36,196 nucleotides of DNA from Elusimicrobia bacterium RIFCSPLOWO2_12_FULL_59_9. GTDB lineage: Bacteria > Elusimicrobiota > Elusimicrobia > O2-12-FULL-59-9. Positions within the stretch are counted from its first letter, which is position 1; every line of letters begins with the position of its first letter. Position numbers and translations under genes: made by a program. The notes under the pieces were generated by a model. It saw only the letters and a program-made list of their open reading frames with translations, searched no databases and was not told the origin of the DNA. The DNA lies in the NCBI GenBank assembly GCA_001800185.1, contig MGUX01000167.1, positions 19,937 to 56,132 on the forward strand. The letters run 5' to 3'. This document shows positions 5,175 to 22,136 of the stretch, piece by piece.

Positions 5175-7178
5175 CGCCTTGCGCCGCGTGAAGGCCCAGC
5201 CCGCCGCAAGAGCCATAACCAGAAGCGCCTGCCCCATCAACGTCTCCCAGGTCGGATAAATGCCCAGGAAGGGCAGTTCCCTCATCCAAACAAACGGGTG
5301 AAGCGAAACCCAGCCCGCTCCTTGAAGCTCATGCAGTCCGCGGCCCATGAAGGAGAAAGCCAGGGCGTAGAGCATGCCGCTGGTCGCGACAAAAAACGTC
5401 CGCATCGGAATCCTGACTTCCAAGCGGTAAAAAGAAACAAACAGAACGGCCAGGAGCGCGGCGCCCGCCAAAAAACCAGCCAAAACGATCGCTTTATTGA
5501 CTGCGGCGAAACCGAGGAGAGCCTGATAGAAAAGCACCGTCTCAAAACCTTCCCGGTAAACGGCCAGAAAGGCGGCGAAGCCCAGCATCGCCGCGCTGCC
5601 GGAGCCGAGCGCTCCCTGCAGTTGACCGCGGATAAAGGACCGCCATTTTTCCGCCTCCGCCTTGGCCAGAAGCCAAAAGGAAACGTAAAACAGAACGGCC
5701 GCCGCCGCCAGCATCACCACGCCTTCGAGGCTTTCCTGGTTCAGGGCCGAAGTCCGCAAAAATCTCTGCGCCGCCCAGGCGGTCGCGAACGAGGCCGCCA
5801 CGCCCAGGGCCGCTCCCCGGTAAACCGTCCTCAGCTTGTCCGCATGACCCGCGCGCTTCAAGTACGCGATAAGCGCGGCGATAATGAGAATGGCCTCAAA
5901 TCCCTCCCGAAGAATGATGGTCAGGGACTGCAAAAACGCCACGGCGGGCGATGATGAGCGATCGAGGGCGCGCCTCAGCCTATCCAAACGCGCTTCTATC
6001 CCGCTTTTTGAATTTATGATTTCCGCGCGGGGCGCCGCTTGAAGCAGCTTGGCCCGCAAAAGCGGAAAAGCGCTCTCGAGGTAGCGGTTGTCCTCCGGGG
6101 CCTTGGAGGCCGCCCGCGCTTCGATGCGTTCGTAGCGAAGATACGCCTCCAGGGCGGCATCCGCGGAGTCTTTGAAAGCGCCGCGATCAAAAAATTCCAA
6201 GCTGCCCGCGAGGCTAGCCTTCACCTGCGCGATCACGGAGACGATTTCGTCCTGCGGCGCGGAGTCCCCCTCCCCTCCCGCTTCGAGCTTTCGCGCGGAG
6301 CGCCAATAAGCCGACAGCAGCGCGGCTTCCTCGCCGGAGAGGCCCGCCTCCGGACGCCCGGTCAGGAGCGCGGACGCTTCGAGCTCGCTTCGCTCAGCCC
6401 AGAATTTCAGGCTCTTGAACTCCCCCGGCAAGCGCCCGCGCGCACGCTCGTAAATTTTTTCGGCCTTCTCGATGTCCCGCGGAGAGAGGGTGAAGCTCCA
6501 GAGGTAGGCGACCACGTCCCAGCGCTCGCTTTCGCTCAGAGTCTCCGCCCACGAAGCCATCGCGGTTCCCCCCACGCCGACCGCCACCGTCTGGAAGAAG
6601 CTCAGCGGGGAAGCCGCGCGCATGAAATCTTTTTCGGTGAAGGCCGGAGGCGGCGGCTGAAGAGCCGCCGCCGCCGGGCCCTTGCCGTCTCCGGCCGCGC
6701 CATGGCAGGCCGCGCAGTTTTGAAGGTAAATCCGCCGCCCGGAGTCGAGCGAGGGACGGCTCATGGGAAGAGCGTGGGTCGAAACGCCGAAGGATTTTTC
6801 AAGAGAAACCCGCAGGCCCTCCGCGAGCCGCCGCACGTCTTCCGGCGCCTCTTTGTCCCGGACTTTGGCTTGGAGAAATTTGAAATCGTTTTTGAGCGCC
6901 GAATTCTTGGCCGCGCTCAACCCGGCCTCTTGGGCGGCGCGCTCGTACTGAGCCGCCGCCGCCGCCGTGAAATCAACGGCCTCGCCGTATTCGCCGGGGT
7001 TGACGACGCGTCCGCCCGCGACCCCAAGGCCGTATTCCTTGGCCGCGATGTTGAGCGTAAAGACGATGCGCTGCACCTGCGCCCGCCGCCCGGTGGCCGC
7101 CTCCTGCGTCCGCGCGGCGGAGGACAAGACAGGCAGCATCAGGAAAGTCAAAAACGCGCGGACAATGAAGCGATGCAT
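4938..7178 (-). CDS. cytochrome c domain / FTR1 (EfeU)-family high-affinity iron permease fusion protein
   Basis: Signal peptide, heme-binding CAACHG with a downstream Met ligand region, and a long helical linker. The polytopic permease then carries two REGFE motifs (ILREGFEAIL, VYREGFETVL), diagnostic of FTR1/EfeU. The last roughly 79 codons run antisense through the tatC 3' end. Confidence 0.85.
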   Translation of the reverse strand: MHRFIVRAFLTFLMLPVLSSAARTQEAATGRRAQVQRIVFTLNIAAKEYGLGVAGGRVVNPGEYGEAVDFTAAAAAQYERAAQEAGLSAAKNSALKNDFKFLQAKVRDKEAPEDVRRLAEGLRVSLEKSFGVSTHALPMSRPSLDSGRRIYLQNCAACHGAAGDGKGPAAAALQPPPPAFTEKDFMRAASPLSFFQTVAVGVGGTAMASWAETLSESERWDVVAYLWSFTLSPRDIEKAEKIYERARGRLPGEFKSLKFWAERSELEASALLTGRPEAGLSGEEAALLSAYWRSARKLEAGGEGDSAPQDEIVSVIAQVKASLAGSLEFFDRGAFKDSADAALEAYLRYERIEARAASKAPEDNRYLESAFPLLRAKLLQAAPRAEIINSKSGIEARLDRLRRALDRSSSPAVAFLQSLTIILREGFEAILIIAALIAYLKRAGHADKLRTVYRGAALGVAASFATAWAAQRFLRTSALNQESLEGVVMLAAAAVLFYVSFWLLAKAEAEKWRSFIRGQLQGALGSGSAAMLGFAAFLAVYREGFETVLFYQALLGFAAVNKAIVLAGFLAGAALLAVLFVSFYRLEVRIPMRTFFVATSGMLYALAFSFMGRGLHELQGAGWVSLHPFVWMRELPFLGIYPTWETLMGQALLVMALAAGWAFTRRKALSPEMSDPDGNLVEQVGGDDEGQLRKEIGSRRQNGAHNGDGQQSVPAVMAQHPGLDDAQADQNENYDGQLKHRSEADA

Positions 7179-7279: not shown

Positions 7280-7987
7280 TCAACGGACGGAGTCTTTGAG
7301 GTCGAAGCGGTAGCCGACGCCGTGGATGGTGCGGATGAGGGCGGCGGCCTCCCCCATTTTCTTGCGGAGGTTTTCAATGTGCTTGTCGACGGTGCGCCCG
7401 GGAGACGGCGCGGAATCCTTCCAGACGTAGTTCTGCAGATAGCCGCGGGTCAACACCTTGCCCTGGTTTTCCAAAAGGCAGACCAACAGCTCAAATTCCA
7501 TAGGCGCCAGGCGCACCTCCGCGTTGGAAATCCAAGCGCGGTGCTCGCCGGTCTTGACCAAAATGGGGCCGCTGCGCAGATCCTTGCCCCCCAAGACATC
7601 CTGCTGCCAATTGAGCCGGCGCAGCAAAGCCTCGATGCGGGCCAATAGGATATCCCTTTCAAACGGCTTCCGGATGAAGTCGTCGGCGCCCAGGCGCAGC
7701 GCCTCCACGGCGTAGTTGCTGTCGCTGGATGCGCCCGAATACATGATCACGGGGACGTTTTTGAGCTTGTCGTCGGCCTTCACAATTTTAAGAAGCCCCC
7801 AGCCGTCGATGCCGGGCATATGCACGTCCATGATGACCAAGTCGGGAGGATCGTAGGGCATCACCTTGACGACTTCTTGGGAGCGCGCGTAGAGCTGGGG
7901 CGAGTATCCCGCCTGCCCCAAAACGAACTTGAGGAAGTCCCGCACGTCGTCGTCGTCCTCGATGATCGCGATGGTTTTGCCGGCCAT
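7280..7987 (-). CDS. OmpR/PhoB-family response regulator (REC + winged-helix)
   Basis: REC motifs IIEDDDD, LVIMDVHMPGIDG and DFIRKPF. The C-terminal trans_reg_C part has LAPMEFELLVCL...VDKHIENLRKK...IRTIHGVGYRF. Confidence 0.9.
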   Translation of the reverse strand: MAGKTIAIIEDDDDVRDFLKFVLGQAGYSPQLYARSQEVVKVMPYDPPDLVIMDVHMPGIDGWGLLKIVKADDKLKNVPVIMYSGASSDSNYAVEALRLGADDFIRKPFERDILLARIEALLRRLNWQQDVLGGKDLRSGPILVKTGEHRAWISNAEVRLAPMEFELLVCLLENQGKVLTRGYLQNYVWKDSAPSPGRTVDKHIENLRKKMGEAAALIRTIHGVGYRFDLKDSVR

Positions 7988-7998
7988 AAACCTGAGGG

Positions 7999-8385
7999 TC
8001 AGGATGCGGAAGTCTTGCGAAGCAGCGCCGCCACCCGCGCCAACACCTCTTCGGGAGAAAACGGCTTTAAAATGTAATCGTCGGCGCCCAATTTCAGGCC
8101 CTGAACGATTTCTTCCACTTGGGACCGAATCGTGATGAAAATGATGGGAATTCTCGGCTGGACCTCGCCGGAGCGTATCTTGGTACAGACCTCGTAGCCG
8201 TCCATTTTGGGCATGTTGATGTCCAAAAAAATCAGGTCCGGAGAGGTCTCTTCCAAAAGCTTCAAGCCCTCTTCCCCGTTGTCGGCCAGGACGACGCCGT
8301 AGCCTTCCGCGGCGAGAATCGTCTTGAACAGCCGCTGGTAGTCCGGCTCGTCCTCGATGACTAGAATTTTCTTCTTGGGCATCAA
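7999..8385 (-). CDS. single-domain CheY-like response regulator (REC only)
   Basis: KILVIEDEPD, LIFLDINMPKMDGYEV, DDYILKPF. The 128-aa product has no output domain. It starts 26 nt downstream of the tRNA 3' end with no intervening terminator. Confidence 0.9.
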   Translation of the reverse strand: MMPKKKILVIEDEPDYQRLFKTILAAEGYGVVLADNGEEGLKLLEETSPDLIFLDINMPKMDGYEVCTKIRSGEVQPRIPIIFITIRSQVEEIVQGLKLGADDYILKPFSPEEVLARVAALLRKTSAS

Positions 8386-8775: not shown

Positions 8776-11493
8776 CTATCCCTCGCCTTTTTCTATGATT
8801 TCCGCTAAATAATCTAGCAAATCTTGCCAGGGGGCGCTTAGCTGGCCGCCGCCTTGGGCGAAATCGGGGCGGCCGCCGGCGCTGCCGTTGTATTTTTCAG
8901 CCAGGCGCTTGGCCAGGCCCGAGGCTTGCAGGCCGGCCAGGTCGGGGCTCAGGCCGAGAACGAAAGAAAAAGAAGGCGGCGTCAGGTTCGCCAGAAATAC
9001 GACGGATTTTTTCTCCGATTTGCGCCACCGATCGGCCACGGCGCGCAATTGGGAGGCGTCGGCGTTCTCAAATTTCCGGGACAAGAGCCGTATCCCCCCG
9101 TGAAGCTCGCGCTCTTCCCCGGCTTTTTCAGCTTCCTTTAATAGTTTTTTTCCTTGTATATTTTTTATCGCCAGACGCAGCTTTTTTTCGCGCTCTTGGT
9201 AGCCGTCCAAATCCGCCTTAAAACCGCCCTGGGCCTTGGCGCCGGCTTTCGCCTGGTCTGTTCCCGCGAATTTAAGCGCCTCCTCCGCCCCTTGCGGCGA
9301 AAGACGCCGCAGCTCCCCTATGAGCTCCTCTTCTTTGGCCTTGGCCGCCGCGACGCGCTCCCGCAAAACGCGCTCCTGCTCCTGCCGGAACTCTTCCACC
9401 TTGGCGCCCGCCACCGCCTCCACGCGCCGCACCCCGGCCGCGACGGAAGACTGGCGGGGAATTTTAAAGCCTCCGATGACGCCGGTGCGCTGCACGTGCG
9501 TCCCGCCGCAGAGCTCCAAGCTGAAGCGCTCCCGGGGATCATCCCAGCCCTTGGCGCCGATCAAGAGAAAGCGCGGACAATCCCCGTATTTTTCTCCGAC
9601 CAAAGTCACCGCGCCAAGCTCCTCTACCTCCCCCGCCGGCCTTTCCTGAGGAGACACCGGATAATCCTGGCCGATGATCTCGTTGACCATGCTCTCGATT
9701 TTTCCGATTTCCTCGGGAGTCAGGGCCTTGGGATGGGTGAAATCAAAACGCAGATGCTCCGGATCCACCAACGAACCGGCCTGGCGCACGTGCCGCCCCA
9801 AAATCCGCCTAAGGGCTTCGTTTAAAAGGTGCGTGGCGGTGTGATGATTCATCGTCGAGCGGCGCGATGTCTCGTCCACCTGGGCGCTCACCGTCTCGCC
9901 CGCCTCGATGGTTCCCTCTTCCATGACCCCCCGATGAATGAGGACGTTTTCCATCATCTGCGCGTCCCTCACGCGCATCCGCCCTCGCTCGCCGACAATG
10001 ACTCCACGATCGCCCACCTGTCCGCCGCCCTCGGGATAAAAGGGCGTGCTGTCCAGCACCACCAATGTCTCATAGCGAGGATCATCGGGCGCCTTGTGGT
10101 CCGCTATTCCCAAAACCTTCGCCTTCAAAGACATCGTCTCATAACATTTTTTTTTCGTTTTGAGCCCCTGCCACTTTTCAAGCCGGGCCACGGCCGAAGC
10201 CGCCACGGCCGTCACTCCCGAGCCCTTCCAGCCGGCGCGCGCCAATTCCTGGGCGTCTTTCTGCGCCTTTTGAAAACCGGCCTCGTCGATGGAGCGCCCC
10301 GCGGCCGCGGCGATCTCCCGGGTCAGCTCCAACGGAAATCCATAGGACTCATAGAGCCGGAAGGCGACTTCGCCTGGAAGATGCTTGGGATATTTTTCAA
10401 AAAGCTCCTTGAGCACCGCCTCGCCCGTCTCCAAAGTATTTAAGAAACCTTTTTCTTCCATTTCCGCGGCGATTTCCACCTGGGAGCGCGCCGCCTTGAT
10501 CTCGGGATACGCCCCCTCGAAAATCTCCGCCACCGGGGCCACCAATTGGCGCAAAAAGGCCTCGCGCTTTCCCAAAAGCCGGCCGTAGCGCACCGCCCTG
10601 CGAATGAGCCGCCGCAGGATGTAGCCTCGCCCTTCGTTGGAGGGCACCAAACCCTCCGACAGCAGCATGACGGCCGAGCGCATATGGTCGCCGATGATGC
10701 GAAAGGCCTCCTTTTCCTTTGGGGTTTTGCCCGTGAGCTCGGCAATTTTTTCCGTCAGCGGAGCGAAGAAGCTGGTCTCAAACGGGCTCGTCTTGTTTTC
10801 TAAAACCATCGCCAGCCGCTCAAGCCCCATGCCGGTGTCTATGTTTTTTCTTGGAAGGGGCGCCAAGCTCCCGTCCTCTTGGCGGTCAAACTGAGTAAAC
10901 ACCAGATTCCACAGCTCCATGTAGCGGTCGCAGTCGCAGCCGGGGGCGCACTCCGCCCGTCCGCAGCCGGAGCCGGGTCCCGAATCGAAATAAATCTCGG
11001 AGCATGGCCCGCACGGCCCCGTGGGGCCCATCGTCCAGAAATTGGACTCCTCGCCCAGGCGCGTGATGCGCGCTTTAAGTCCAGCCCCGGACAAGACCTT
11101 TTCCCAGATGCCGAAGGCCTCGTCGTCTTCCTTATATATGGTGACGTGGAGCCTGCGCGCGTCCAGGCCCGCTTCCACGGTCAGGAACTCCCACGCCATG
11201 CGGACCGCGTCCTCCTTGAAATAGTCGCCGAAGGAGAAATTGCCGAGCATCTCGAAGAAAGTCAGGTGGCGGCGCGTAAACCCCACGCGGTCAATGTCGG
11301 TGGTGCGCAGGCACTTCTGGCAGCTCGCGGCCCTGGAGACTCCCTTTTTGAGACCCAAGAAATAGGGCTTAAACGGCACCATGCCGGCCGAGGTGAAAAG
11401 CAAGCTCGCGTCTCCCTGCGGAACGAGGGAAATCGGGGGAAAGATTTGGTGGGCGTTTTTCTTGAAATAATTCAGGAATTGTTTGCGCATCAT
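8776..11493 (-). CDS. alaS: alanine--tRNA ligase
   Basis: 905 aa. Class II catalytic core (FTSAGMVPFKPYF, RHLTFFEMLGNFSFGDYFK), editing-domain HTATHLL...CGGTHV motifs and a C-terminal DHHA1-like GGRPDFAQGGG. Confidence 0.97.
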   Translation of the reverse strand: MMRKQFLNYFKKNAHQIFPPISLVPQGDASLLFTSAGMVPFKPYFLGLKKGVSRAASCQKCLRTTDIDRVGFTRRHLTFFEMLGNFSFGDYFKEDAVRMAWEFLTVEAGLDARRLHVTIYKEDDEAFGIWEKVLSGAGLKARITRLGEESNFWTMGPTGPCGPCSEIYFDSGPGSGCGRAECAPGCDCDRYMELWNLVFTQFDRQEDGSLAPLPRKNIDTGMGLERLAMVLENKTSPFETSFFAPLTEKIAELTGKTPKEKEAFRIIGDHMRSAVMLLSEGLVPSNEGRGYILRRLIRRAVRYGRLLGKREAFLRQLVAPVAEIFEGAYPEIKAARSQVEIAAEMEEKGFLNTLETGEAVLKELFEKYPKHLPGEVAFRLYESYGFPLELTREIAAAAGRSIDEAGFQKAQKDAQELARAGWKGSGVTAVAASAVARLEKWQGLKTKKKCYETMSLKAKVLGIADHKAPDDPRYETLVVLDSTPFYPEGGGQVGDRGVIVGERGRMRVRDAQMMENVLIHRGVMEEGTIEAGETVSAQVDETSRRSTMNHHTATHLLNEALRRILGRHVRQAGSLVDPEHLRFDFTHPKALTPEEIGKIESMVNEIIGQDYPVSPQERPAGEVEELGAVTLVGEKYGDCPRFLLIGAKGWDDPRERFSLELCGGTHVQRTGVIGGFKIPRQSSVAAGVRRVEAVAGAKVEEFRQEQERVLRERVAAAKAKEEELIGELRRLSPQGAEEALKFAGTDQAKAGAKAQGGFKADLDGYQEREKKLRLAIKNIQGKKLLKEAEKAGEERELHGGIRLLSRKFENADASQLRAVADRWRKSEKKSVVFLANLTPPSFSFVLGLSPDLAGLQASGLAKRLAEKYNGSAGGRPDFAQGGGQLSAPWQDLLDYLAEIIEKGEG

Positions 11494-11612
11494 TTTGCCT
11501 TGGTTTTAATTCCACCATTATAGCAAAAGCCCCTCTTTGGAGATTCCGCCTTCGCCCCGGCCGCGCTTTCTGGCGGGGCGTCTGGAAAATTCACTATACT
11601 ACGGTCAAATCC

Positions 11613-12305
11613 ATGGAAAGCAAAATCCTGATCATCGATGACGACCCGAAGATTCTAAAGATCATCCGGAGATTTCTGGCAAGCAACGCCTTCGAGGTCC
11701 TTGTGGCCGACAACGGCTCCGACGGCCTTGCTTTGGCCCGCGAGGCGCTGCCTGACCTCATTTTAGTGGATGCCGATATGCCGGACTTGGACGGCCATGC
11801 CGTGTGCCGGATACTCAAGAAGGAAGCTCTCAGCCGCCGGATTCCCGTCATCATCATGTCCGGCTCCAAGATTTCAGACAAGGACGTCCTCGCGGGCTTT
11901 GAGGGCGGCGCGGACGACTATATCATGAAACCGTTTTTCCCTCCGATCCTCCTGGCCCGAATCCGGGCCGTCTTGAAGCGCTACGCCGCATCCCCCCAAC
12001 GGGAGAGCGCATTCAAAAAGTCCGGCATCGAACTGAACCCGGCCGAGCGAACGGCGCGGGTGGACGGAAAATCAATCTCCCTGACGCGCAAGGAATTTGA
12101 TCTTCTGGCCAACTTGATCGACCAGAGCGGGCGCGTGCTCAGCATCCCCTATCTTTTGGAAACCGTCTGGGGTTACGATCCGGCCGATTATAATGACCCC
12201 GGCACGGTCGAGGTTCACATCTTCCACCTGCGCAAGAAATTGGGCCCGAAGGCCGGCAAGCGCATCGTCAACGTTCTCGGACACGGCTACAAGTTCAAAG
12301 AATAG
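11613..12305 (+). CDS. OmpR/PhoB-family response regulator
   Basis: ILIIDDDP, LILVDADMPDLDG, DDYIMKPF. DNA-binding part has LTRKEFDLLANL...VEVHIFHLRKKL...LGHGYKF. Confidence 0.9.
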   Translation: MESKILIIDDDPKILKIIRRFLASNAFEVLVADNGSDGLALAREALPDLILVDADMPDLDGHAVCRILKKEALSRRIPVIIMSGSKISDKDVLAGFEGGADDYIMKPFFPPILLARIRAVLKRYAASPQRESAFKKSGIELNPAERTARVDGKSISLTRKEFDLLANLIDQSGRVLSIPYLLETVWGYDPADYNDPGTVEVHIFHLRKKLGPKAGKRIVNVLGHGYKFKE

Positions 12306-12449
12306 ATCCATCCCCGCTAGTCCTCTAGACTTAAGCAAGACTTAAACACACCTTGAACCGGCATAGAGCCCGGCCCGCTACCCTATCAATATGAAAAGCG
12401 TACGGCAGGAAAACGACGCAACGGGAAAACAGGTCGTTTGGAGAAAACA

Positions 12450-14459
12450 ATGGAACAATTTGCGAACGGCATCGGGGCTCTGCTAAATTCCAACCACGAG
12501 TCCGCGGACGTCGCGCCGGTCCGCCCATCGTCCGGCAAAAACATTGTCCCAAAAGTGCTGGTGGTGGATGACGAAGTGGGATTCAGGGAGCTAATGGCCT
12601 ACGAATTGGAGACCCGGGGCTACCAGGTCGTCGGCGCCGCCAACGGCGAGGAAGCGGTCCGGCTGGCTCAGGGAAAAGATATTGACGTCGTCGTTTCGGA
12701 CGTGACGATGCCCAAGCGCGGCGGCCTGGATACTTTGAAAGCTTTGAAAGACGTGGATTCTAAAATTGAAGTGATCATGATGACCGGCTACGCCACTCTC
12801 GAAAACGCCGTAGAGAGCATGAAGCGCGGCGCCTACGACTTCATTACCAAGCCCTTCAAAATCGACCATCTGACAAGATTGATCGAGCGGGCCCTGGAAA
12901 AGCGCCGCTTGAACTGCAAGGTGGATGAACTGGAGGAGATCAACCGCTTTAAATCCGAATTTTTGGCCAACATGAGCCATGAGCTGAGAACGCCCTTGAA
13001 CGCGATATTGGGCTACACCTCCCTGCAACTGGATCGCATCTACGGGGAAGTGACGCCGAAACAAGAGGAATCCTTAAAGAGGGTCGAGGCGGCAGAAAAA
13101 AACCTGCTTCAACTCATCAACAGCATCCTGGACCTCTCGAAGGTCGCGGCCGGCCGCATGCCCGTTTACCGGGAGGATTTCAGCCTAAGGGAACTGGGCC
13201 AAGAGGTGATCGGGATGATGGAGTGCCTGGCCAAAGGCAAACAGCTCCGCCTGGAGTGGAAAATGCCGGAGGATATTCGCCTTCGAAGCGACAGAACAAA
13301 GGTCAAGCAAATCCTCATCAATTTGGTGACCAACGGCATAAAATTTACCCGCTCGGGGGGCGTTTTTATCGAGGCGGAGAGCGTGGCGGAAACCTCTCAA
13401 GCGCGCATTCGGGTCCGGGACACGGGCATCGGAATTAAAGCGGAAGATATCCCTCTTTTATTCCAAGAATTCAAGCAACTGGACTCCTCGCCCACAAGGG
13501 AATACGGCGGGACCGGATTGGGCCTGGTCATCAGCCAAAAATTCGCGGAGCTTCTAGGCGGGAGCATCGGCGTGGAAAGCGCGGCGGGGGCGGGCGCCAC
13601 CTTCACCGTCAACCTGCCATGGGAGGGCCAAGGGTCCAAGGAACCGGCGGCGCCGATTTCAACCGCGCCTTCCAATGGAAAAGACGGCAAAACGCTTTTG
13701 GCCATCGATGACGATCCGGAGGTCCTGGCGCTGCTCCGGGACAGCCTGCACGGCACCGGCTACGCCTTCGCGGGAGCCCTCACGGGCGAGGAAGGCATCG
13801 CCATGGCCCGAGAAAGAAAGCCCTTCGCCATCACCCTCGACATCATGATGCCTCACCGGGACGGATGGTCCGTCCTGCAGGTCTTGAAAAATGATCCGGA
13901 CCTGCGCTCCATTCCCGTGATCATGGTCTCCATTTTAGACAACAAGAGCCTCGGGTTTGCCCTGGGCGTCAACGACTACATCGTCAAGCCTTTTGAGCGG
14001 CGCGAACTGCTGGAGAAGCTCCGGACGGCGGAACGCAGCCTCCAGTCGAGACCTCCGGCCCCCGGCCAGTTGCCCCGGACGATTTTGGTCGTGGATGACG
14101 AGGCGGCGGTCGCGGACTACATCCGCGAAACCCTGAGCGCCGAAGGCTACGCGGTCGAGGCGGCCGCCGACGGGAGGGAAGCTCTCGCCAAGCTCGCCGG
14201 CGGCAGTCCCCCGGATATCTTGTTTTTGGACCTGATGATGCCGGGCATCAACGGCTTCGACATCATCGAAGCCATCGACAAAGAACCTCGCCTGAAGAAA
14301 GTCCTGACCATCGTCTTGACCGCCAAGCACCTGACCCCGCAGGAAACGGATTATCTGCAAAAGCGGGTCGAGTTGGTCGTTCAAAAGGGCTCCAGGAATC
14401 TTCCGGAGATATTGACCGCCGTCAAGAAACGATTAAAAACGCTGGCGGAGGTCCGGTGA
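12450..14459 (+). CDS. soluble hybrid histidine kinase, REC-DHp(HisKA)-CA-REC-REC
   Basis: REC1 (VLVVDDE...VSDVTMPKRGG...DFITKPF), H-box FLANMSHELRTPLNAILGY, and CA with VRDTGIGI and GGTGLGLVIS. REC2 has LAIDDDP...LDIMMPHRDG...YIVKPF and REC3 has ILVVDDE...LDLMMPGINGF. There is no TM or periplasmic segment. Start set at ATG 12450 behind GGAG; the track start is a TTG at 12438. Confidence 0.9.
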   Translation: MEQFANGIGALLNSNHESADVAPVRPSSGKNIVPKVLVVDDEVGFRELMAYELETRGYQVVGAANGEEAVRLAQGKDIDVVVSDVTMPKRGGLDTLKALKDVDSKIEVIMMTGYATLENAVESMKRGAYDFITKPFKIDHLTRLIERALEKRRLNCKVDELEEINRFKSEFLANMSHELRTPLNAILGYTSLQLDRIYGEVTPKQEESLKRVEAAEKNLLQLINSILDLSKVAAGRMPVYREDFSLRELGQEVIGMMECLAKGKQLRLEWKMPEDIRLRSDRTKVKQILINLVTNGIKFTRSGGVFIEAESVAETSQARIRVRDTGIGIKAEDIPLLFQEFKQLDSSPTREYGGTGLGLVISQKFAELLGGSIGVESAAGAGATFTVNLPWEGQGSKEPAAPISTAPSNGKDGKTLLAIDDDPEVLALLRDSLHGTGYAFAGALTGEEGIAMARERKPFAITLDIMMPHRDGWSVLQVLKNDPDLRSIPVIMVSILDNKSLGFALGVNDYIVKPFERRELLEKLRTAERSLQSRPPAPGQLPRTILVVDDEAAVADYIRETLSAEGYAVEAAADGREALAKLAGGSPPDILFLDLMMPGINGFDIIEAIDKEPRLKKVLTIVLTAKHLTPQETDYLQKRVELVVQKGSRNLPEILTAVKKRLKTLAEVR

Positions 14460-14863
14460 ACTCTAAAATCCTCATCGCCGACGACGATTACGACAATCGC
14501 TCGATTCTCAAGGCGGCTCTGGAGGCGGCGGGCTTCCAGGTCCTTGAAGCCGCCGACGGCCAGGAAGCCGTCGATACGGCGATCCAGGAGCGGCCCCGCC
14601 TAATTTTTATGGACCTTTCCATGCCCAAGATAAGCGGCTGGGAAGCCACCCAACGCATACGGCAGATTCCCGAGATTTCCCGCACTTTTATCTTCGCCTT
14701 TACGGCGCATGCCCTGCAAGGCGATGAAATCAAAGCCAAAGCCGCCGGCTGCGATGATTATATTTCAAAGCCCTGCGTTCCCCGCGAGATCGTCCAAAAA
14801 GTTCTCAGCATCATCACAATGGGAAAGGAAACCGAGCATTATGGCCAACATCCTGGTCATTGA
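14456..14863 (+). CDS. single-domain CheY-like response regulator
   Basis: ILIADDDYDNR, LIFMDLSMPKISGWE, DDYISKP. Its GTG start overlaps the kinase stop (GTGA). Confidence 0.88.
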   Translation: MNSKILIADDDYDNRSILKAALEAAGFQVLEAADGQEAVDTAIQERPRLIFMDLSMPKISGWEATQRIRQIPEISRTFIFAFTAHALQGDEIKAKAAGCDDYISKPCVPREIVQKVLSIITMGKETEHYGQHPGH

Positions 14864-15218
14864 CGACGACACGTCCAACCGCGACATCCTCAGGGCCCGG
14901 CTTGAGCGGGCCGGCCACCGGGTGGCGGAGGCCGGCAACGGCGAGGAGGGAATAGAAATAGCCCGGAATCTATCCCCGGACCTCATCATCTTGGACGTCA
15001 TGATGCCCAAGTTGGACGGGTGGCAGGCCTGCCGGCGCCTGAAGTCCGACTCCAAGACCAAGACCATTCCGGTGGTGCTTTTGACGGCCCGGAGCCAGCA
15101 TATTGAGGAGCTCAGAGGCTGGGAATCCGGAGCGGACGAGTACATGACGAAGCCTTGCGATCACCGGCGCCTGATGGACCTCGTCGCCCGGTTCGTGGAC
15201 AAGAGCTCCGCGCCATAG
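14841..15218 (+). CDS. single-domain CheY-like response regulator
   Basis: Internal ATG of the 14709 ORF gives MANILVIDDDTSNR..., LIILDVMMPKLDGWQ, DEYMTKP. It overlaps the preceding REC gene by 23 nt. Confidence 0.88.
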   Translation: MANILVIDDDTSNRDILRARLERAGHRVAEAGNGEEGIEIARNLSPDLIILDVMMPKLDGWQACRRLKSDSKTKTIPVVLLTARSQHIEELRGWESGADEYMTKPCDHRRLMDLVARFVDKSSAP

Positions 15219-15221
15219 AAT

Positions 15222-16742
15222 ATGCCCTCCGAAACGAACGCCGCCGGTTTATCTTCCTTCAAAATCGCCCCCGAGCTCTTGAAGCTCATCCCGTTTGAGA
15301 CCATGCGGCGGCATTGCCTGGCGCCCGTTGACCTCAACAACGGCAAGCTCCGGCTGGCCATGGTGAGACCCAAGGACCTTACGGCCATGGATGACATCCG
15401 AATATTGACCGGCCATGAGCTGGAGATTTTCCCGATATCCGCGGCGGAACTGAACGAAATCCTGCGGCAGAATTTTATGGATTTAGCGGAGCATCCCGTT
15501 TACGCTGCTCTGAAGTTGGAATCCGCCGCGCCCGCCGCCGCGGGTTCCCCGTATCCTTCCGACCCCAATGCCGTCCAGTCGGTGGAAAGGCTTTTTAAGC
15601 TTGCCGTCGAGATGCGCGCCAGCGACATCCACCTGGAGCCTCAAAGGCAGGGCTTCTACGCCAGGTTTCGCGTCGACGGGGTATTGCAGACCATCCATGG
15701 GTTTCCCAAGTCCTCCCAGGCCGCCATGACCTCTCGAATCAAGGTCATGGCCAATATGGACATCTCTGAAAAACGGCTGCCTCAAGACGGCCAGGCGAGC
15801 CTCCGGCACGGGAACAAGAATATTGACCTAAGAATTTCCACCTTGCCGGGCAAATACGGGGAAAAGTTGGTGATCCGGATTCTCGATAAATCCGATTTGG
15901 CCTTGGGGCTGGAACGCCTGGGTTTTGAGCCCGGCGCGCAGAGCGTCTTTGAATCTTTAATAGAGCGATCCTATGGAATTATATTGGTCACGGGCCCGAC
16001 AGGCAGCGGAAAAACCACCACCCTTTACGCGGTCTTGAATCGTCTCAAGTCGCCCCTCAAAAACGTCATCACTTTGGAGGACCCCATCGAATACGAGCTC
16101 CTGGCGGGCAACTCCAACGAGATGGGAATCACCCAGGTTCAAGTGCAGCCTAAAATAGGCCTGACCTTCGCCGCGGGCCTGCGCTCCGCCTTGCGGCAGG
16201 ACCCGGACGTGATTATGGTCGGCGAAATTCGCGACAAGGAAACTGCGGAAACGGCGATGAAGGCCGCCATGACGGGGCACCTGGTGATGTCCACTCTGCA
16301 TACCAACGATGCTCCCAGCGCCCTCGGCAGGCTGATGGATATGGGGATAGAGCCGTACTTGATGGCCTCCACCATCATCGGGGTATTGGCCCAGCGTCTG
16401 GTGCGGCTATTGTGTCCCCGCTGCAAAGAGCAATACCGCCCCCCCGTCCGGGCCTTGAAAAATCTCTTCCCGAACCGGGAAGATGTCTCCAAGGCGATTT
16501 TCTACAGGCCCATTGGATGCGAGCATTGCCAAAAAACCGGCTACCGCGGCCGGCAAGGAATTTTTGAGCTGCTGACCATGACCGAGGAGCTCAAACAAAA
16601 AACCCACTGCGGAGAGCACCTGGAGAGCCTGCGCAAGCTTGTCCAATCTCAGGGGCTGAAGTCCCTGCGGGAAAGCGGGATGGAACTGGTGTTCCAAGGC
16701 TTGACCACCGTGGAGGAAATATCCAGGGTAACCGTGGAATAG
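15222..16742 (+). CDS. GspE/PilB-family secretion/pilus-type hexameric ATPase (orphan)
   Basis: N-terminal T2SSE_N-like domain (LIPFETMRRHCLAPVDLNNGKLRLAMVRP), Walker A GPTGSGKTTT and Asp box ITLEDPIEYEL. Walker B DPDVIMVGEIRD, His box GHLVMSTLHTNDA and the tetracysteine CPRC...CEHC are also present. No pilin, platform (GspF/PilC) or secretin gene lies in the window. Confidence 0.92.
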   Translation: MPSETNAAGLSSFKIAPELLKLIPFETMRRHCLAPVDLNNGKLRLAMVRPKDLTAMDDIRILTGHELEIFPISAAELNEILRQNFMDLAEHPVYAALKLESAAPAAAGSPYPSDPNAVQSVERLFKLAVEMRASDIHLEPQRQGFYARFRVDGVLQTIHGFPKSSQAAMTSRIKVMANMDISEKRLPQDGQASLRHGNKNIDLRISTLPGKYGEKLVIRILDKSDLALGLERLGFEPGAQSVFESLIERSYGIILVTGPTGSGKTTTLYAVLNRLKSPLKNVITLEDPIEYELLAGNSNEMGITQVQVQPKIGLTFAAGLRSALRQDPDVIMVGEIRDKETAETAMKAAMTGHLVMSTLHTNDAPSALGRLMDMGIEPYLMASTIIGVLAQRLVRLLCPRCKEQYRPPVRALKNLFPNREDVSKAIFYRPIGCEHCQKTGYRGRQGIFELLTMTEELKQKTHCGEHLESLRKLVQSQGLKSLRESGMELVFQGLTTVEEISRVTVE

Positions 16743-16770
16743 CTTGACGGCACCGGCAGGAGATAATAAT

Positions 16771-18414
16771 ATGGAGCACCCAATAAAAATCTTGGTGGTT
16801 GACGACGAGCTTGGAATCCGCGAGCTTCTCTCCTCGGAACTCGGCTCCCGCCAGTACCAGGTGGCGACCGCCGCCAACGGCGAAGAGGCGCTGGAAAAGG
16901 TCAAAAATGAGAAGTTTCATCTCGTGATCAGCGACGTCAGAATGCCCAAAATGGGCGGCCTCGAAATGCTGGAGGCGATTAAAAAGATAGACCCGGACGT
17001 GGAAGTCATCATGTCCACGGGCTACGGAACGATTGAGGCCGCCGTCAGAGCCATGAAAAGAGGCGCCTATGACTTTGTGCTCAAGCCGTTTAAGCTGGAA
17101 CAATTCCTGGCCCTTATCGACCAAGCGCTGGAGAAAAACGACCTGAAGACGCTTCTGGGAATCTACGAAACCAGCAAGGCGATCTCCGCGTCCGTCAAGC
17201 TCGAAACGCTGCTTCCGCTCATGGCGAAGTTTTCCAGCGGAATTCTCGGCGCCGACGACGCTTCAATTATGACGGTCGATCCGGAAGGCGGGCTCTCGCT
17301 GGCGGCGGCCGCCGGTATCGAGGAGGATGGGCGGAAAATGGCCCGCCTGGCGCTGGGAAAGCGCGCGGCGCAAGCGGCGGCGCCGGCCAAACCGGGCGGC
17401 ATGATTTTGGGGCCGTTGGACAAGGACCCGGAATTCGCTGGGTCCCCCCTGCTTCAAGACATACGCTCTTCCATCGTTTTTCCGTTATGCGCGGAGGGAG
17501 AAGTTTTGGGCTTCTTCAACGCCAACCGCACGCGCATGGAAGAACCCTTCACCGCCTCCGAACTCCGCCACGCGGCCATTTTCGCCTCCCAAATCGCGCA
17601 AGTGCTCCACAACGCCAAGCTCTGCCGCCAACTGGAAGAAAAAATCCAGGAAATCCAGAGCATGCGGGATCAGCTTGTCCACACCGAGAAATTGGCGGCC
17701 ATGGGCCATGCGGTCGCGGGAGTGGCTCATGAAATCAACAACCCCTTGACCGGCATCATGGGGTTCGCGGAGCTTTTGCTCAACAGCGGCGGCCTCACCG
17801 CCGAACAGCGCGATGATCTGCAGAGCATCCAGCACCAGAGCCTGCGCTGCGGCAAAATCGTCCGCAATCTCCTGCAGGTCAGCCGAAAGAAAACACCCGG
17901 AGAGGCGGCGGCGCCTCTGGAAAAAATACTGGCGCCGGCTTTGGAACTGTTTAAGCGCGATTTTCAATCGGCCCGCATCGAGATTTTAAAGCATGTGCCG
18001 GAAGACCTGCCGCCGATCCAGGGCGACGCCTCCCAATTGGAGCAGGTCTTCCTCAACATCATCGCCAACGCCCGCCAAGCGATGGAAGGCAAAAGCGGGG
18101 GCGTCCTAAAAATAGAGGCCTGCCGGCAGGGCCGGCGTATTTCTATACGGTTTGAGGACAACGGCTGCGGCATCTCGCCGGAAAATCTGAAAAAAGTGTT
18201 CGACCCGTATTTCACCACCAAACCGGCCGGAAAAGGCACGGGACTGGGGCTGTCCACCTCCCACGGAATTCTCCGGCAGCATCAAGGAACGATCCGGGTC
18301 GAAAGCACAGCCGGAGCCGGCGCCGCTTTTATCGTGGATCTGCCGGCCGGTCCTGAGCCGCCGGAGGATTCGCGGCGGCCGCGGACCCAAGCCGCCGAGG
18401 GGCGCTCGCAATGA
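16771..18414 (+). CDS. soluble hybrid histidine kinase, REC-GAF-DHp-CA
   Basis: ATG 16771 is preceded by AGGAG. REC (ILVVDDE...ISDVRMPKMGG...DFVLKPF), a GAF-like middle region, H-box GVAHEINNPLTGIMGFAELL, N-box NIIANARQAM, G1 EDNGCGI and G2 GKGTGLGLS. Confidence 0.9.
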   Translation: MEHPIKILVVDDELGIRELLSSELGSRQYQVATAANGEEALEKVKNEKFHLVISDVRMPKMGGLEMLEAIKKIDPDVEVIMSTGYGTIEAAVRAMKRGAYDFVLKPFKLEQFLALIDQALEKNDLKTLLGIYETSKAISASVKLETLLPLMAKFSSGILGADDASIMTVDPEGGLSLAAAAGIEEDGRKMARLALGKRAAQAAAPAKPGGMILGPLDKDPEFAGSPLLQDIRSSIVFPLCAEGEVLGFFNANRTRMEEPFTASELRHAAIFASQIAQVLHNAKLCRQLEEKIQEIQSMRDQLVHTEKLAAMGHAVAGVAHEINNPLTGIMGFAELLLNSGGLTAEQRDDLQSIQHQSLRCGKIVRNLLQVSRKKTPGEAAAPLEKILAPALELFKRDFQSARIEILKHVPEDLPPIQGDASQLEQVFLNIIANARQAMEGKSGGVLKIEACRQGRRISIRFEDNGCGISPENLKKVFDPYFTTKPAGKGTGLGLSTSHGILRQHQGTIRVESTAGAGAAFIVDLPAGPEPPEDSRRPRTQAAEGRSQ

Positions 18415-19175
18415 ACGCGCCCGGCCATATCCTTATCGTAGACGACGAACCCGCCATCCTCAGAGTCTGTGAAAGAACTTTATGCCAAATGGGATATCGC
18501 GTCAAAAGCGCGGCCGACAGCCGCGAAGCATTGCGGCAGATGGCGGCGGAAAACTTCGATTTCGTCCTGACGGACCTTGCCATGCCCGAGCCCGCCGACG
18601 GCGAAAGATTGACCGAGGAAATAGCGCGGAGATGGCCCTCGACCGACGTGGTCGTGATGACCGCCTATCCGGCCCTGGAGACCGCCATCCCCGTTCTAAA
18701 AAACGGCGCCCGGGACTATCTGGTCAAACCCATCCGCCCGGAGATTCTGCGATCCGTGGTCTCCCGCTGCTTTGAAAAGCGCCGCCTGTCGGGCGAATTA
18801 GACGGCGCCGAGAATCTGCTCCGGGAGTTGGAGGCGTCCCGCGCCAAACTCGAAAAAGTGGAACGGTTTCAAAAAGAAACGCTTGCCAGGCTTGGACGCG
18901 AACTGACAGGCCCCGTCAGCGCCAGCTTGCTGTCCCTGGAGTCTCTCTCGCAACTGCGTCCCAGCCTTAGAAAAATCAAGCTCTACAAGCTGGCCAGGGC
19001 CCGCCTCGTCGAGCTTCAGGAGCTCATCGAAAATCTGCTATTATTCGCCAAAAACCGCCGGCGGCGCCCGGCCGTTCATCGCTCTCCGACGAATGTGAAG
19101 GGGGTCATCCTGCCCGCGCAAGCGATCCAGGGAAATTCGGCGACCCGCGTCGCGGACTCGCCGGACGGCTCATGA
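18411..19175 (+). CDS. REC + coiled coil + His-less DHp-like domain protein (no catalytic domain)
   Basis: Intact REC (ILIVDDEP, LTDLAMP, DYLVKP). The H-box position reads LARLGRELTGPV where SHELRTPL is expected, so the phospho-acceptor His is Arg. This is followed by a DHp helix-2-like LVELQELIENLLLFAKN. ATGA overlaps occur at both ends. Confidence 0.8.
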   Translation: MNAPGHILIVDDEPAILRVCERTLCQMGYRVKSAADSREALRQMAAENFDFVLTDLAMPEPADGERLTEEIARRWPSTDVVVMTAYPALETAIPVLKNGARDYLVKPIRPEILRSVVSRCFEKRRLSGELDGAENLLRELEASRAKLEKVERFQKETLARLGRELTGPVSASLLSLESLSQLRPSLRKIKLYKLARARLVELQELIENLLLFAKNRRRRPAVHRSPTNVKGVILPAQAIQGNSATRVADSPDGS

Positions 19176-19893
19176 CGCAAAAAACAGCCCGTCCAGCCGT
19201 GCTTCTGGCCGCAGTCGCGGCAAGCGCCATTTTATCCTGGGTTTCGCCCAATCGGCCGCGAAAAGAATCAAGGACTCCGACGCGCTCTCGCTGCCGTTGA
19301 AATCCATCGAAAGGGAGGCGCTGCGCTGCATGAACCTGGTGCAGAACCTGCTCGCCTTTTCCAGGCAAAACAAGCCCGAGATGATGGAGTTCGACCTCAA
19401 TGAGACCGTGGAGGACACGCTCAGCATCGTCGAGGCGCAGGCGCGGCTTAAATCCGTGGAGATCGTCAAGGAGTTGGCGCCGCTGGAGCCGTTCTACGGC
19501 GACAACAATCAACTCCAGCAAGCCCTCGTCAATCTCTGCAACAACGCCATCGACGCGCTGCCGCAAAGCGGCAGGATCGTGATCCGCACCCGAAAAGGCG
19601 CCGCCCCAAGCGGCCACGGGATTGTTCTGGAGGTGGAAGACAACGGCGCCGGAATCCCGGAGGAAATTCGGGACAAGATATTCAATCCGTTTTTCACCAC
19701 CAAGGAAGTGGGAAAGGGCACCGGCTTGGGCTTGGCTTTGACTCACGATATCATCGAGAGGCACCAGGGAACGATTGAAGTCAAAAGCGCCGTGGGTCGC
19801 GGAACGACTTTCACCGTGTTTCTTCCCGCTAATAATTCGGCGACTCCACAGAAAAACGGCCGCGGCAGTTCCAACCTTCCGAGTCCATCATAA
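19172..19893 (+). pseudogene. frame-disrupted histidine-kinase-like gene (degenerate H-box + intact HATPase_c)
   Basis: ATG 19172 overlaps the upstream TGA and encodes MTQKTARPAVLLAAVAASAI. This aligns with EKLAAMGHAVAGVAHEIN of the neighbouring kinase, with His replaced by Ala. That frame stops at 19298-19300. The -1 frame continues ..ILGFAQSAAKR...LVQNLLAFSR and a complete CA domain ([36 protein letters not shown]). A small deletion plus frameshift lies near 19229-19240. The CA part could alternatively be made from TTG 19297 or ATG 19330. Confidence 0.55.
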
Positions 19894-19985
19894 AAAAACT
19901 AAAAATTTTCATGGTCCCGATGACCGCAATACGGCATAAAACCGGCGATTGCGGCTCAAATTCCGAATATGTTAGGCTGTTATTG

Positions 19986-20432
19986 ATGAAATATCGCGCT
20001 CTCGGTTTGGTTGCGGCCTTTCTTTTCGCTTTTTCCTTTTCTCCAGCGGCATTTGGCGCGGACGCGGCGCCGCAAAACGGCGTTAAATCGCGGCCGGCGG
20101 ATCGCCGCGACTTACGGCGCCTTCAAAAGGACTTAAAGCTTATCGCCGAGTCTCTGGCGGACCAGGTGGACGTGGAAGAAGAGGCGGAGCAATCCCTGGA
20201 TTTCTTGTCCAAAGAGGGCCTGGATCGCCAGGAGAGATTGGCGCAGAGCGGAAACATCGATCCTCAACTGGCCCCCGCGCTGGCGCGTCTCAACAAGCTT
20301 TTTGTTTCCCTGCCGCAAAAAAAATACGCCGAGCCTTACGGCGCGGAGTTGGTCCGGGCGCTGGCCCATGAAATCCGCTGGATCGCCGACAAAGCCAAGA
20401 CCAAAAAACAGCTTTTAAAAATGCTCGATTAG
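19986..20432 (+). CDS. secreted helical hypothetical protein
   Basis: Internal ATG gives MKYRALGLVAAFLFAFSFSPAAFGADA (signal peptide) followed by charged helical sequence. I recognise no family. Confidence 0.55.
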   Translation: MKYRALGLVAAFLFAFSFSPAAFGADAAPQNGVKSRPADRRDLRRLQKDLKLIAESLADQVDVEEEAEQSLDFLSKEGLDRQERLAQSGNIDPQLAPALARLNKLFVSLPQKKYAEPYGAELVRALAHEIRWIADKAKTKKQLLKMLD

Positions 20433-20998: not shown

Positions 20999-22133
20999 GT
21001 GTAGTGATTCATAATTAACTTGACAATAACCCTCGACGAGAGCTATCATATGCATCATGCACCTCGCTCCACCCATCCTCTTGTCCCCGGGAGAACGGTC
21101 CACTTTGGCCGCGTGGGCACATGCGAAGAGCCAACCATTACGGGTTATTCAGCGCGCGCATATCATCACCATGGCTGCTAACGGCGTGACCAGCCAAGAC
21201 ATTGCGGAACAGTTGGGAATTTCTCGGCCAACGGTGCAACTGTGGCGAGAGCGATTCCTCGCCCTCCGAGTGGCCGGACTCGAGAAAGATGCTCCACGCC
21301 CCGGCCGCATCCCGACCATTTCCGACAGCAAGGTCCGAGCCATCGTTGAAGCCACTCTGCACACGAAACCACCCACTGCAACTCACTGGAGCACTCGAAC
21401 TATGGCCGAGGCCCAAGGCGTCAGCCAACCCACAGTTCACCGAATATGGAAGCAGCATAACCTCAAGCCGCACTTGGTCAAGACTTTTAAGATCAGCCGC
21501 GACAAACATTTTATCGAGAAGCTCTACGATGTAGTCGGGCCTTATCTCAATCCTCCGGACAAATCCATTGTCCTGTGTGTCGACGAGAAAAGCCAAATCC
21601 AAGCCCTCGATCGCACCCAGCCAGGCTTACCAATCAAGAAGGGGCGCTGCGGCACGATGACGCATGATTACAAGCGCAACGGCACGACTACTTTGTTCGC
21701 GGCTCTCAGCATGCTCGATGGCAAGGTGATTGGCGAATGTATGCCGCGCCATCGGCATCAAGAGTTCATCCGCTTCCTCAAAAAGATCGATAGCGAGACT
21801 CCTTCTGGGTTCGATCTGCACATCATCGCCGACAACTACGCGACCCATAAGCATCCGCGCGTCAAATCCTGGCTGCAACGAAATCCGCGGTTCCATCTAC
21901 ACTTCATCCCAACTTCCAGTTCTTGGGTCAACATGGTGGAGCGCTGGTTCCGCGAAATCACCGACAAGCGCATCCGGCGCGGCATCTTCAAAAACGTGCC
22001 GGAGTTGATCGCCGCCATCCAAGAGTACCTGGACAATCATAACCAGAACCCACGCATCTTTACGTGGACCGCGTCCGTTGAACAGATTTTGGCGAAGGTC
22101 GCCAAATGTAAAGAAGCGTTGGTATCACTACAC
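20999..22133 (+). mobile_element. IS630-family insertion sequence (about 1.13 kb) in a CTAG target with TA duplication
   Basis: Ends GTGTAGTGAT...ATCACTACAC (terminal inverted repeats). Flanks read c-TA-[IS]-TA-g, the classical IS630/Tc1-mariner CTAG target with TA duplication. One DDE transposase ORF fills the element. Confidence 0.88.
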
Positions 22134-22136
22134 TAG
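21057..22136 (+). CDS. IS630-family DDE transposase
   Basis: N-terminal HTH (SQDIAEQLGISRPTVQLWRERF), second HTH (GVSQPTVHRIWKQHNLKPH), and DDE triad context VDEKSQIQAL / IIADNYATHKH / SSWVNMVERWF. The stop codon TAG is formed with the flanking TA duplication. Confidence 0.93.
   Translation: MHLAPPILLSPGERSTLAAWAHAKSQPLRVIQRAHIITMAANGVTSQDIAEQLGISRPTVQLWRERFLALRVAGLEKDAPRPGRIPTISDSKVRAIVEATLHTKPPTATHWSTRTMAEAQGVSQPTVHRIWKQHNLKPHLVKTFKISRDKHFIEKLYDVVGPYLNPPDKSIVLCVDEKSQIQALDRTQPGLPIKKGRCGTMTHDYKRNGTTTLFAALSMLDGKVIGECMPRHRHQEFIRFLKKIDSETPSGFDLHIIADNYATHKHPRVKSWLQRNPRFHLHFIPTSSSWVNMVERWFREITDKRIRRGIFKNVPELIAAIQEYLDNHNQNPRIFTWTASVEQILAKVAKCKEALVSLH

Follow-up and report, generated by a model that had tools for sequence, protein, structure and literature searches.

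A PilB/GspE-type ATPase co-inherited with CheY-like receivers in Elusimicrobiota: a candidate motor under phosphorylation control

What does an apparently complete PilB/GspE-type ATPase do directly behind two genes for CheY-like receivers? The question is raised by Elusimicrobia bacterium RIFCSPLOWO2_12_FULL_59_9, a metagenome-assembled genome (MAG) of 1.96 Mb and 73% completeness whose closest relatives are groundwater Elusimicrobia MAGs. The stretch analysed here, called the window, comprises 36,196 nucleotides (nt) of contig C167 (MGUX01000167.1; positions 19937–56132). An earlier reading of the bare nucleotide sequence (the original prediction) had placed two single-domain receiver (REC) genes and the ATPase gene at window positions 14456–16742, likened the receivers to PilG/PilH of the Pseudomonas Chp system, and proposed either direct phospho-dependent control of a motor ATPase or a repurposed ATPase serving as the output of a signalling pathway. 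The gene order was confirmed, and the open reading frames (ORFs) listed were right except for the start of the second receiver. Comparison of the gene with its relatives suggests a motor enzyme under the control of phosphorylation rather than a secretion gene gone astray.

The ATPase, its receivers and the operon

The ATPase belongs to the T2SSE superfamily, matching the Pfam profile PF00437 with an E-value of 3.5e-128 and 427.8 bits against a gathering cut-off of 24.9. The catalytic motifs were read directly off the translation, and comprise the Walker A and B motifs, the Asp and His boxes, and a tetracysteine zinc site (Table 1); moreover, the protein retains every column that is invariant in a 57-sequence family alignment, all catalytic motifs included. 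By its residues the ATPase is therefore a catalytically intact PilB/GspE-type enzyme, just as had been read from the sequence at the outset. Its AlphaFold2 (AF2) model (pLDDT, 88.4) was compared by Foldseek with the cores of Thermus PilF and Geobacter PilB, giving TMt values of 0.91–0.94 and a root-mean-squared deviation of ~2 Å (TMt 0.94 for both 5OIU and 5TSG), and shows the same fold of the N2 and C-terminal (CTD) domains, with the zinc tetracysteine that marks extension-type members.

The assignment to a particular type of machine is less straightforward. The best NCBIfam model was GspE (TIGR02533), which aligned over its full length with 546.9 bits, below the equivalog cut-off of 630.25, and the PilB model (TIGR02538) gave 520.8 bits over profile positions 61–563 only, below its cut-off of 675.65; the ATPase thus reaches neither equivalog. 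The best sequence matches in the Protein Data Bank (PDB) were PilB/PilF entries (409–412 bits; 45–46% identity), with alignments starting at residue ~80–85 of Geobacter PilB. Judged on these matches, it is a T2SSE superfamily member with a PilB-like core. It shares the N2 + CTD core, the ATPase motifs, and the zinc tetracysteine with PilB of type IVa pili (Geobacter, 5TSG/5TSH/5ZFR; Thermus PilF, 5OIU/5IT5), but lacks the first 75–85 residues of PilB, which form the helical subdomain binding cyclic di-GMP (c-di-GMP), and has REC and kinase genes as neighbours instead of pilT or pilC. Likewise, it resembles GspE/EpsE of the type II secretion system (T2SS; 4PHT, 1P9R, and 2BH1) in having an N1E-like domain before N2 and CTD, in its length of ~500 amino acids (aa), and in the end-to-end alignment with the GspE model, but has no gspF, gspL, gspM or pseudopilin gene beside it, and does not group with the ATPases of E–F pairs.

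The N-terminal domain had been called T2SSE_N-type, which proved right in part: residues 10–87 gave a short MshEN/T2SSE_N match in Pfam (E-value, 9.8e-15), but the match represents only the C-terminal α/β half of MshEN. In agreement, the AF2 model of residues 1–100 matched PilF GSPII-A, Xanthomonas citri PilB-N, XpsE-N, MshE, and the N1E domain of EpsE (TMt 0.72 for the last), covering about half of these 140–150-residue targets with the α/β half alone. The N1 domain accordingly corresponds to the C-terminal subdomain of the MshEN receptor ATPases (5HTL), from which the cassette enzyme differs by lacking the two tandem 24-residue c-di-GMP motifs (RLGxx(L/V/I)(L/V/I)xxG...Q) together with their helical subdomain. 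The search for these motifs, suggested as a check of the original prediction, found them absent; the best segment agrees at 5 of 11 positions and has no RLG core.

The two receivers upstream, REC1 and REC2, are by their sequences phosphorylatable single-domain receivers without a PATAN domain. REC1 has the acidic pocket (DDD), the phospho-acceptor Asp (FMDLSMP), the Thr (FTAH), and the Lys (SKP) intact; REC2 is equally intact, and the four elements are conserved for both receivers in all orthologues aligned. Since the REC domain begins only at residue 48 of the ORF 14709–15218, REC2 most likely starts at the ATG at 14841 (MANILVIDDD), not at 14709. Nine co-oriented genes occupy 11613–19893, all except the first being tightly packed or overlapping. 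The stop codon of the hybrid kinase overlaps the start of REC1 (GTGA), REC1 and REC2 overlap by 23 nt, the ATPase follows REC2 after 3 nt, and the REC-GAF kinase follows the ATPase after 1 nt. Gene spacing thus suggests that hybrid kinase, REC1, REC2, ATPase, and REC-GAF kinase form a translationally coupled and probably co-transcribed unit, hereafter the cassette. A promoter and terminator scan found no terminator in the operon above the shuffled expectation, and promoter-like sites there were only weak. REC2 and the ATPase also share a reading frame, with just TAG AAT between them (15216–15224), and read-through of the stop codon would fuse them; this frame relation is not conserved in the orthologous locus L126, and was treated as probably due to chance.

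Inheritance of the cassette and the place of the pilus genes

The surroundings of related ATPases were read with hidden Markov models (HMMs) built by ourselves from the REC, kinase, platform, and ATPase domains of the host; 92 loci were annotated, and were cross-checked by Pfam-labelled loci. The trees come from quick searches and carry SH-aLRT support only. The best matches in other phyla (42–47% identity) are mostly located in pilB–pilT–pilC loci or E–F pairs. In a maximum-likelihood tree of 99 ATPase cores, which provided the phylogenetic placement called for at the outset, the cassette ATPase falls in a clade of 13 rows confined to Elusimicrobiota (support, 98) and separate from the groups of both E–F and pilB–pilT–pilC loci. 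Context was readable for all rows but one; of these 12, 11 have REC or kinase genes on their flanks, and none has a platform gene within 2.5 kb. One subclade of ~505-residue proteins (7 rows; support, 99) stands behind a hybrid kinase and two RECs, except for L015 with a single REC. In a second subclade, of ~570 residues (5 rows; support, 97), four members follow a hybrid kinase and one REC, and an upstream REC is missing from the fifth (L133). The remaining member is another ATPase of the host, encoded on contig C37 behind a histidine kinase and a REC.

The resemblance extends to the neighbouring genes. A hybrid kinase of the same architecture precedes the ATPase in L013, L015, and L125–L132, with an OmpR-like gene further upstream in L126 and L013, and the REC-GAF kinase is conserved downstream in L013, L125, L126, L127, L091, and L143. 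In a tree of 81 receiver domains, the orthologues of REC1 (6 rows; support, 99) and REC2 (7 rows; support, 91) form separate clades, the single REC of the long subclade clusters with that of C37 (support, 97), and each of the hybrid kinase's three receiver domains groups according to its position. Because the branching within each receiver clade broadly parallels that of the ATPases, the cassette appears to be an old unit that, as judged from these trees, has been passed on vertically in several families of the Elusimicrobiota. Among 5.8 billion proteins searched, ~60 clusters matched at ≥50% identity, all named ones being from Elusimicrobia or Endomicrobiales.

Linkage of orthologues to REC genes had been singled out as decisive for the original prediction, which withstood this check: a single-domain REC lies directly upstream of the ATPase in 18 of the 20 family loci, though the surrounding kinases vary, and the 19th has a kinase only. 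The adjacency was also seen among the Pfam-labelled loci (L137/L138, L139, L140, L143, L145, and L146). In several relatives the cassette is headed by a periplasmic-sensor kinase with sCache, HAMP, and PAS domains, which suggests where the input comes from; the host operon has no such kinase. An Omnitrophota locus has the order REC–REC–histidine kinase–ATPase, followed by a platform gene. Signalling-linked ATPases of Nitrospinota were considered as members of the same system, and were set aside as ordinary pilB–pilS–pilR–pilC loci with NtrC-type regulators.

Several individual loci deserve a record here. L140 (GCA_016220095.1), labelled Planctomycetes, has a GAF-PAS hybrid kinase, a REC, and an ATPase of 565 aa with 49% identity, next to which lies a divergent REC-GGDEF gene; unless this MAG carries a wrong label, the cassette is not limited to Elusimicrobiota. 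In L143 (5248–5978 of a 434-kb contig), gene calling splits the receiver adjacent to the ATPase into pieces of 38 and 81 aa, suggesting a frameshift or a sequencing error in this REC2 orthologue. A 353-residue protein from a 7.1-kb contig of a Logan assembly (P0066) links residues 1–66 of a receiver of the REC1/REC2 type directly to the ATPase at residue ~220; it was rejected as a true REC–ATPase fusion of the Rosetta-stone kind, since a deletion or a chimeric assembly is its most likely origin.

Within the clade, the N-terminal part of the ATPase is progressively reduced. The RLG core of the c-di-GMP motif is kept by none of the 13 members, and the PilB of the host on contig C133 retains both motifs. 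The long members still have the helical N-terminal bundle, in which the Arg, Gly, and Gln of the motif are gone; the ~505-residue members have lost the bundle; and forms of 409–429 residues, nested within the latter group, have lost N1 as well. In L137 the REC gene overlaps the start of the ATPase gene, so that the loss of N1 there is real rather than an artefact of gene calling.

The next question is whether the gene is simply a displaced pilB or gspE, i.e., the only motor available to a pilus or T2SS locus elsewhere in the genome that lacks its own ATPase. The absence of pilus and secretion parts from the window, as first reported, was borne out by Pfam scans of its larger ORFs and, for the whole of C167, by genome-wide HMM searches for T2SSF, secretin, and peptidase A24; a pilin-leader pattern also gave no match on C167, the pattern being too strict, as it missed an Ala(−1) pilin on contig C33. 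The host encodes eight T2SSE-family genes. Contig C133 carries pilB–pilT–pilC, with a PilB that scores 648.9 bits in NCBIfam, better than the cassette ATPase; C138 carries tadA–tadB–tadC with a TPR protein; two further genes are PilT-like; and three PilB-like genes lie without a nearby platform, namely that of the cassette and those on C37 and C120. A pilM/pilO/pilP/pilQ cluster is found on C110, pilin-like genes on C33, and a second secretin at the end of contig C78.

A displaced motor would agree with GspE being the best NCBIfam model over its full length, and with the secretin at a contig end in a genome 73% complete where no prepilin peptidase (PF01478) was found, an absence that may reflect incompleteness. 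Pilin-leader sequences are likewise very few genome-wide despite the pilB–pilT–pilC, pilM/O/P/Q, and tad genes, for which incompleteness may also account. More complete relatives were therefore examined. The genomes G172 (97% complete) and G054 (GWA2_56_46; 98%) each contain three platform loci with an immediately adjacent ATPase, and in both the orthologue of the cassette ATPase (68–69% identity) stands alone. Since each platform locus in these genomes has its own ATPase, no ATPase-less machine awaits this gene, and the original prediction passed the test it had set for itself. Together with the scores below both equivalog cut-offs and the separation of the clade from the E–F and pilB–pilT–pilC groups, these counts largely refute a displaced gspE or pilB, which we regard as very improbable. 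Gene context points the same way for either identity: no locus of the clade has T2SSF at a distance of up to 2.5 kb from the ATPase, C167 has none at all, and linkage to pilT, pilC, or pilM is lacking, the host pilB–pilT–pilC locus on C133 having a PilB of its own. A PilC-type platform was present in all ten cassette-bearing or related genomes tested, six of them additional to the two near-complete relatives.

The two other platform-less ATPases of the host are of interest in their own right. The C37 locus (9904–13476) encodes a PAS-like ORF, a histidine kinase (344 aa), a REC (126 aa), and an ATPase (576 aa) with a degenerate c-di-GMP motif, followed by DsbA-like, DoxX-like, and signal peptidase I genes; both the ATPase and its REC cluster with the long-form cassettes of other Elusimicrobiota. 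The C120 ATPase (~600 aa; 13006–16099) is followed by a protein with GAF and HD_5 (HD-GYP-like) domains, possibly a c-di-GMP phosphodiesterase partner, and groups in the tree with paired ATPases of Planctomycetota and Omnitrophota.

Readings of the receiver–ATPase link

Based on the intact enzyme, the conserved REC linkage, the loss of the c-di-GMP motif, and the PilC platform in every genome tested, we favour, at about even confidence, the reading that binding of a phosphorylated REC gates an accessory PilB-type motor, which uses a type IVa pilus platform encoded elsewhere. Gene linkage and co-inheritance are the observations from which we infer direct phospho-dependent control of the ATPase and, beyond it, the driving of pilus extension through PilC and PilM. 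In this proposal, an upstream sensor kinase, such as the sCache/HAMP/PAS kinase of several relatives, would phosphorylate the hybrid kinase, itself without a sensor, at its N-terminal receiver, and the hybrid kinase would pass the phosphate on to REC1 and REC2. Phosphorylated REC2, the receiver adjacent to the ATPase, may then bind the ATPase and switch the activity or the docking of the hexamer, with REC1 acting as a competing phosphate sink or an antagonist. The activated ATPase would act on the type IVa pilus machine, whose PilC, stator protein PilM, and PilNOPQ would be supplied from other contigs, and pilus extension would now be licensed by phosphorylation instead of c-di-GMP. A precedent exists in the binding of phosphorylated PixG to PilB1, which is antagonized by PixH (PMC11181946), and the N-domains of PilB are docking sites for cofactors (PMC11656802).

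The likeness to PilG/PilH noted in the original prediction is loose; it holds for the pair of receivers with intact phosphorylation sites tied to a pilus motor, as in PixG (PATAN-REC) and PixH (CheY-like) of the Synechocystis Tax1 system and in PilG and PilH of P. aeruginosa, but not for the signalling system behind them. Tax1 and Pil-Chp use a CheA-type kinase with a methyl-accepting chemotaxis protein (MCP), whereas here the kinases are HisKA-type hybrids gated by REC domains and the operon encodes no CheA, CheW, or MCP; the cassette is thus not a chemosensory system of the Chp/Tax type. Furthermore, PixG has a PATAN domain, which the receivers described here lack, and Tax1 targets the housekeeping PilB, whereas the target here would be a dedicated ATPase paralogue, evolving together with the receivers and encoded in one operon with them.

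Several points weigh against a gated pilus motor. Binding of a phosphorylated receiver to the ATPase is proposed from adjacency and co-inheritance, and co-transcription of the genes from their spacing. A platform, pilin, or PilM gene was never found next to a clade member; the inventory of the 73% complete host is in itself weak evidence; and the REC linkage has exceptions in L144, with only a small kinase beside the ATPase, and in L133, without an upstream REC. The N-terminal domain raises the most serious objection. The N1E domain of GspE binds GspL and is the part that docks on GspL/PilM, and the N1 of the cassette ATPase is homologous to it. By the count of the tree, N1 was lost at least five times, the N1-less lineages still residing in REC/kinase cassettes, and N1 diverges faster than the core (~45–55% versus ~68% identity to close orthologues). 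This erosion of a homologue of the docking domain is the main argument that the family may dock in a non-canonical manner, and agrees with a role for which docking of the canonical kind has become dispensable.

The same erosion leads to the alternative that a PilB-derived hexamer has left the pilus machine and become part of a cytoplasmic phosphorelay, either as an ATP-driven output remodelling another target, or as an energy-state or scaffold module feeding back on the REC-gated kinases. Its history would be that the c-di-GMP bundle was shed first and N1 thereafter, while the co-inherited CheY-like receivers took over as regulators or partners. Such a repurposing would account for the stepwise loss of N-terminal parts within persisting cassettes, for the lack of platform linkage in 20 loci, and for kinases on both sides that begin with closely related receiver domains. 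Nevertheless, it seems unlikely to us, though it is the strongest of the alternatives: the N2–CTD core is highly conserved and indistinguishable from those of active pilus motors, the PilC platform accompanies the cassette in every genome tested, and the neighbourhood suggests no other substrate. Moreover, PilT-type motors without N1 still dock on the machine, so that the loss of N1 does not exclude docking.

It is also conceivable, with a still lower likelihood, that the receivers do not touch the ATPase at all, which would then be an accessory or alternative PilB linked to them through a common transcript alone, while the phosphorelay acts on transcription through the OmpR-type regulator. 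Such a regulator heads the locus here and in some relatives, and pilS–pilR lie beside pilB in other phyla (e.g., L019 and L031 of Nitrospinota). What remains constant across the rearranged loci, however, is the upstream REC, often overlapping the ATPase gene, and not the DNA-binding regulator, which varies; in addition, REC and ATPase co-diverge, and the clade has lost the usual c-di-GMP input.

The activation of pilus motors is only partly understood, the known inputs being c-di-GMP, PilZ/FimX, MglA/SgmX, and the phosphorylated PATAN receiver of cyanobacteria. Our literature searches found no description of a REC–motor ATPase cassette of the present kind. The family presents a minimal unit as it occurs in nature, pairing one receiver gene with one dedicated motor ATPase, in ~60 clusters with successive losses of N-terminal domains, by which direct phospho-control of a PilB-type hexamer becomes testable in vitro with few soluble proteins. 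Should the ATPase not serve a pilus after all, it would join the rare examples of secretion-superfamily motors that signal transduction has co-opted, be it as a signalling output or as an energy-coupled signalling module, and the annotation of orphan "GspE/PilB family" genes in uncultured phyla would change.

Neighbouring genes

The features of the locus are compiled in Table 1. The N-terminal receivers of the two kinases that flank the receivers and the ATPase are mutual closest relatives across all orthologous loci, which hints that both kinases may take their input from one common upstream phosphodonor.

Table 1. Features of the receiver–ATPase locus and adjacent genes in window coordinates
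Feature	Coordinates	Strand	ATPase residues	Evidence
OmpR-type response regulator (REC + Trans_reg_C), upstream of the cassette	11613..12305	+		Pfam
Hybrid histidine kinase, REC-HisKA-HATPase_c-REC-REC, no sensor domain	12438..14459	+		Pfam
REC1, single-domain receiver	14456..14863	+		Pfam REC, E 1.4e-26
REC2, single-domain receiver directly upstream of the ATPase	14841..15218	+		Pfam REC, E 1.8e-28 on ORF 14709-15218
PilB/GspE-family hexameric ATPase (506 aa), N1 + N2 + CTD, without c-di-GMP-binding helical subdomain	15222..16742	+		Pfam, NCBIfam, PDB sequence search, AF2, Foldseek
N1 domain, α/β half of MshEN/GSPII domain, homologous to GspE N1E	15249..15485	+	10-88	Pfam, AF2 model
Walker A, GPTGSGKTT	15993..16019	+	258-266	
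Asp box, ITLEDPIEYEL			283-293	
Walker B, DPDVIMVGEIRD, and His box, TGHLVMSTLHTND	16200..16310	+	327-338 and 351-363	
Tetracysteine Zn site, CPRC ... CEHC	16413..16529	+	398-401 and 433-436	
REC-GAF-HisKA-HATPase_c kinase	16744..18414	+		Pfam
REC protein, C-terminal half (~130 aa) without Pfam match; start overlaps preceding stop (ATGA)	18411..19175	+		
ORF with HATPase_c only, no HisKA, probably a decayed kinase	19297..19893	+		Pfam
ORF of 173 aa, no Pfam match	19911-20432	+		
IS630-type transposase (DDE_3 + HTH), downstream of the kinase operon	21057-22136			

Ahead of the IS630-type transposase gene, within the stretch 21020–22136, lies the region's best match to a σ70-like promoter, which agrees at 11 of 12 positions. 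On the other side of the operon, the minus strand encodes a 746-residue protein with a cytochrome c domain and an FTR1 iron permease (4938–7178), near which lie the genes for a Fur-family regulator (1456–1953) and two more response regulators (7280–8385).

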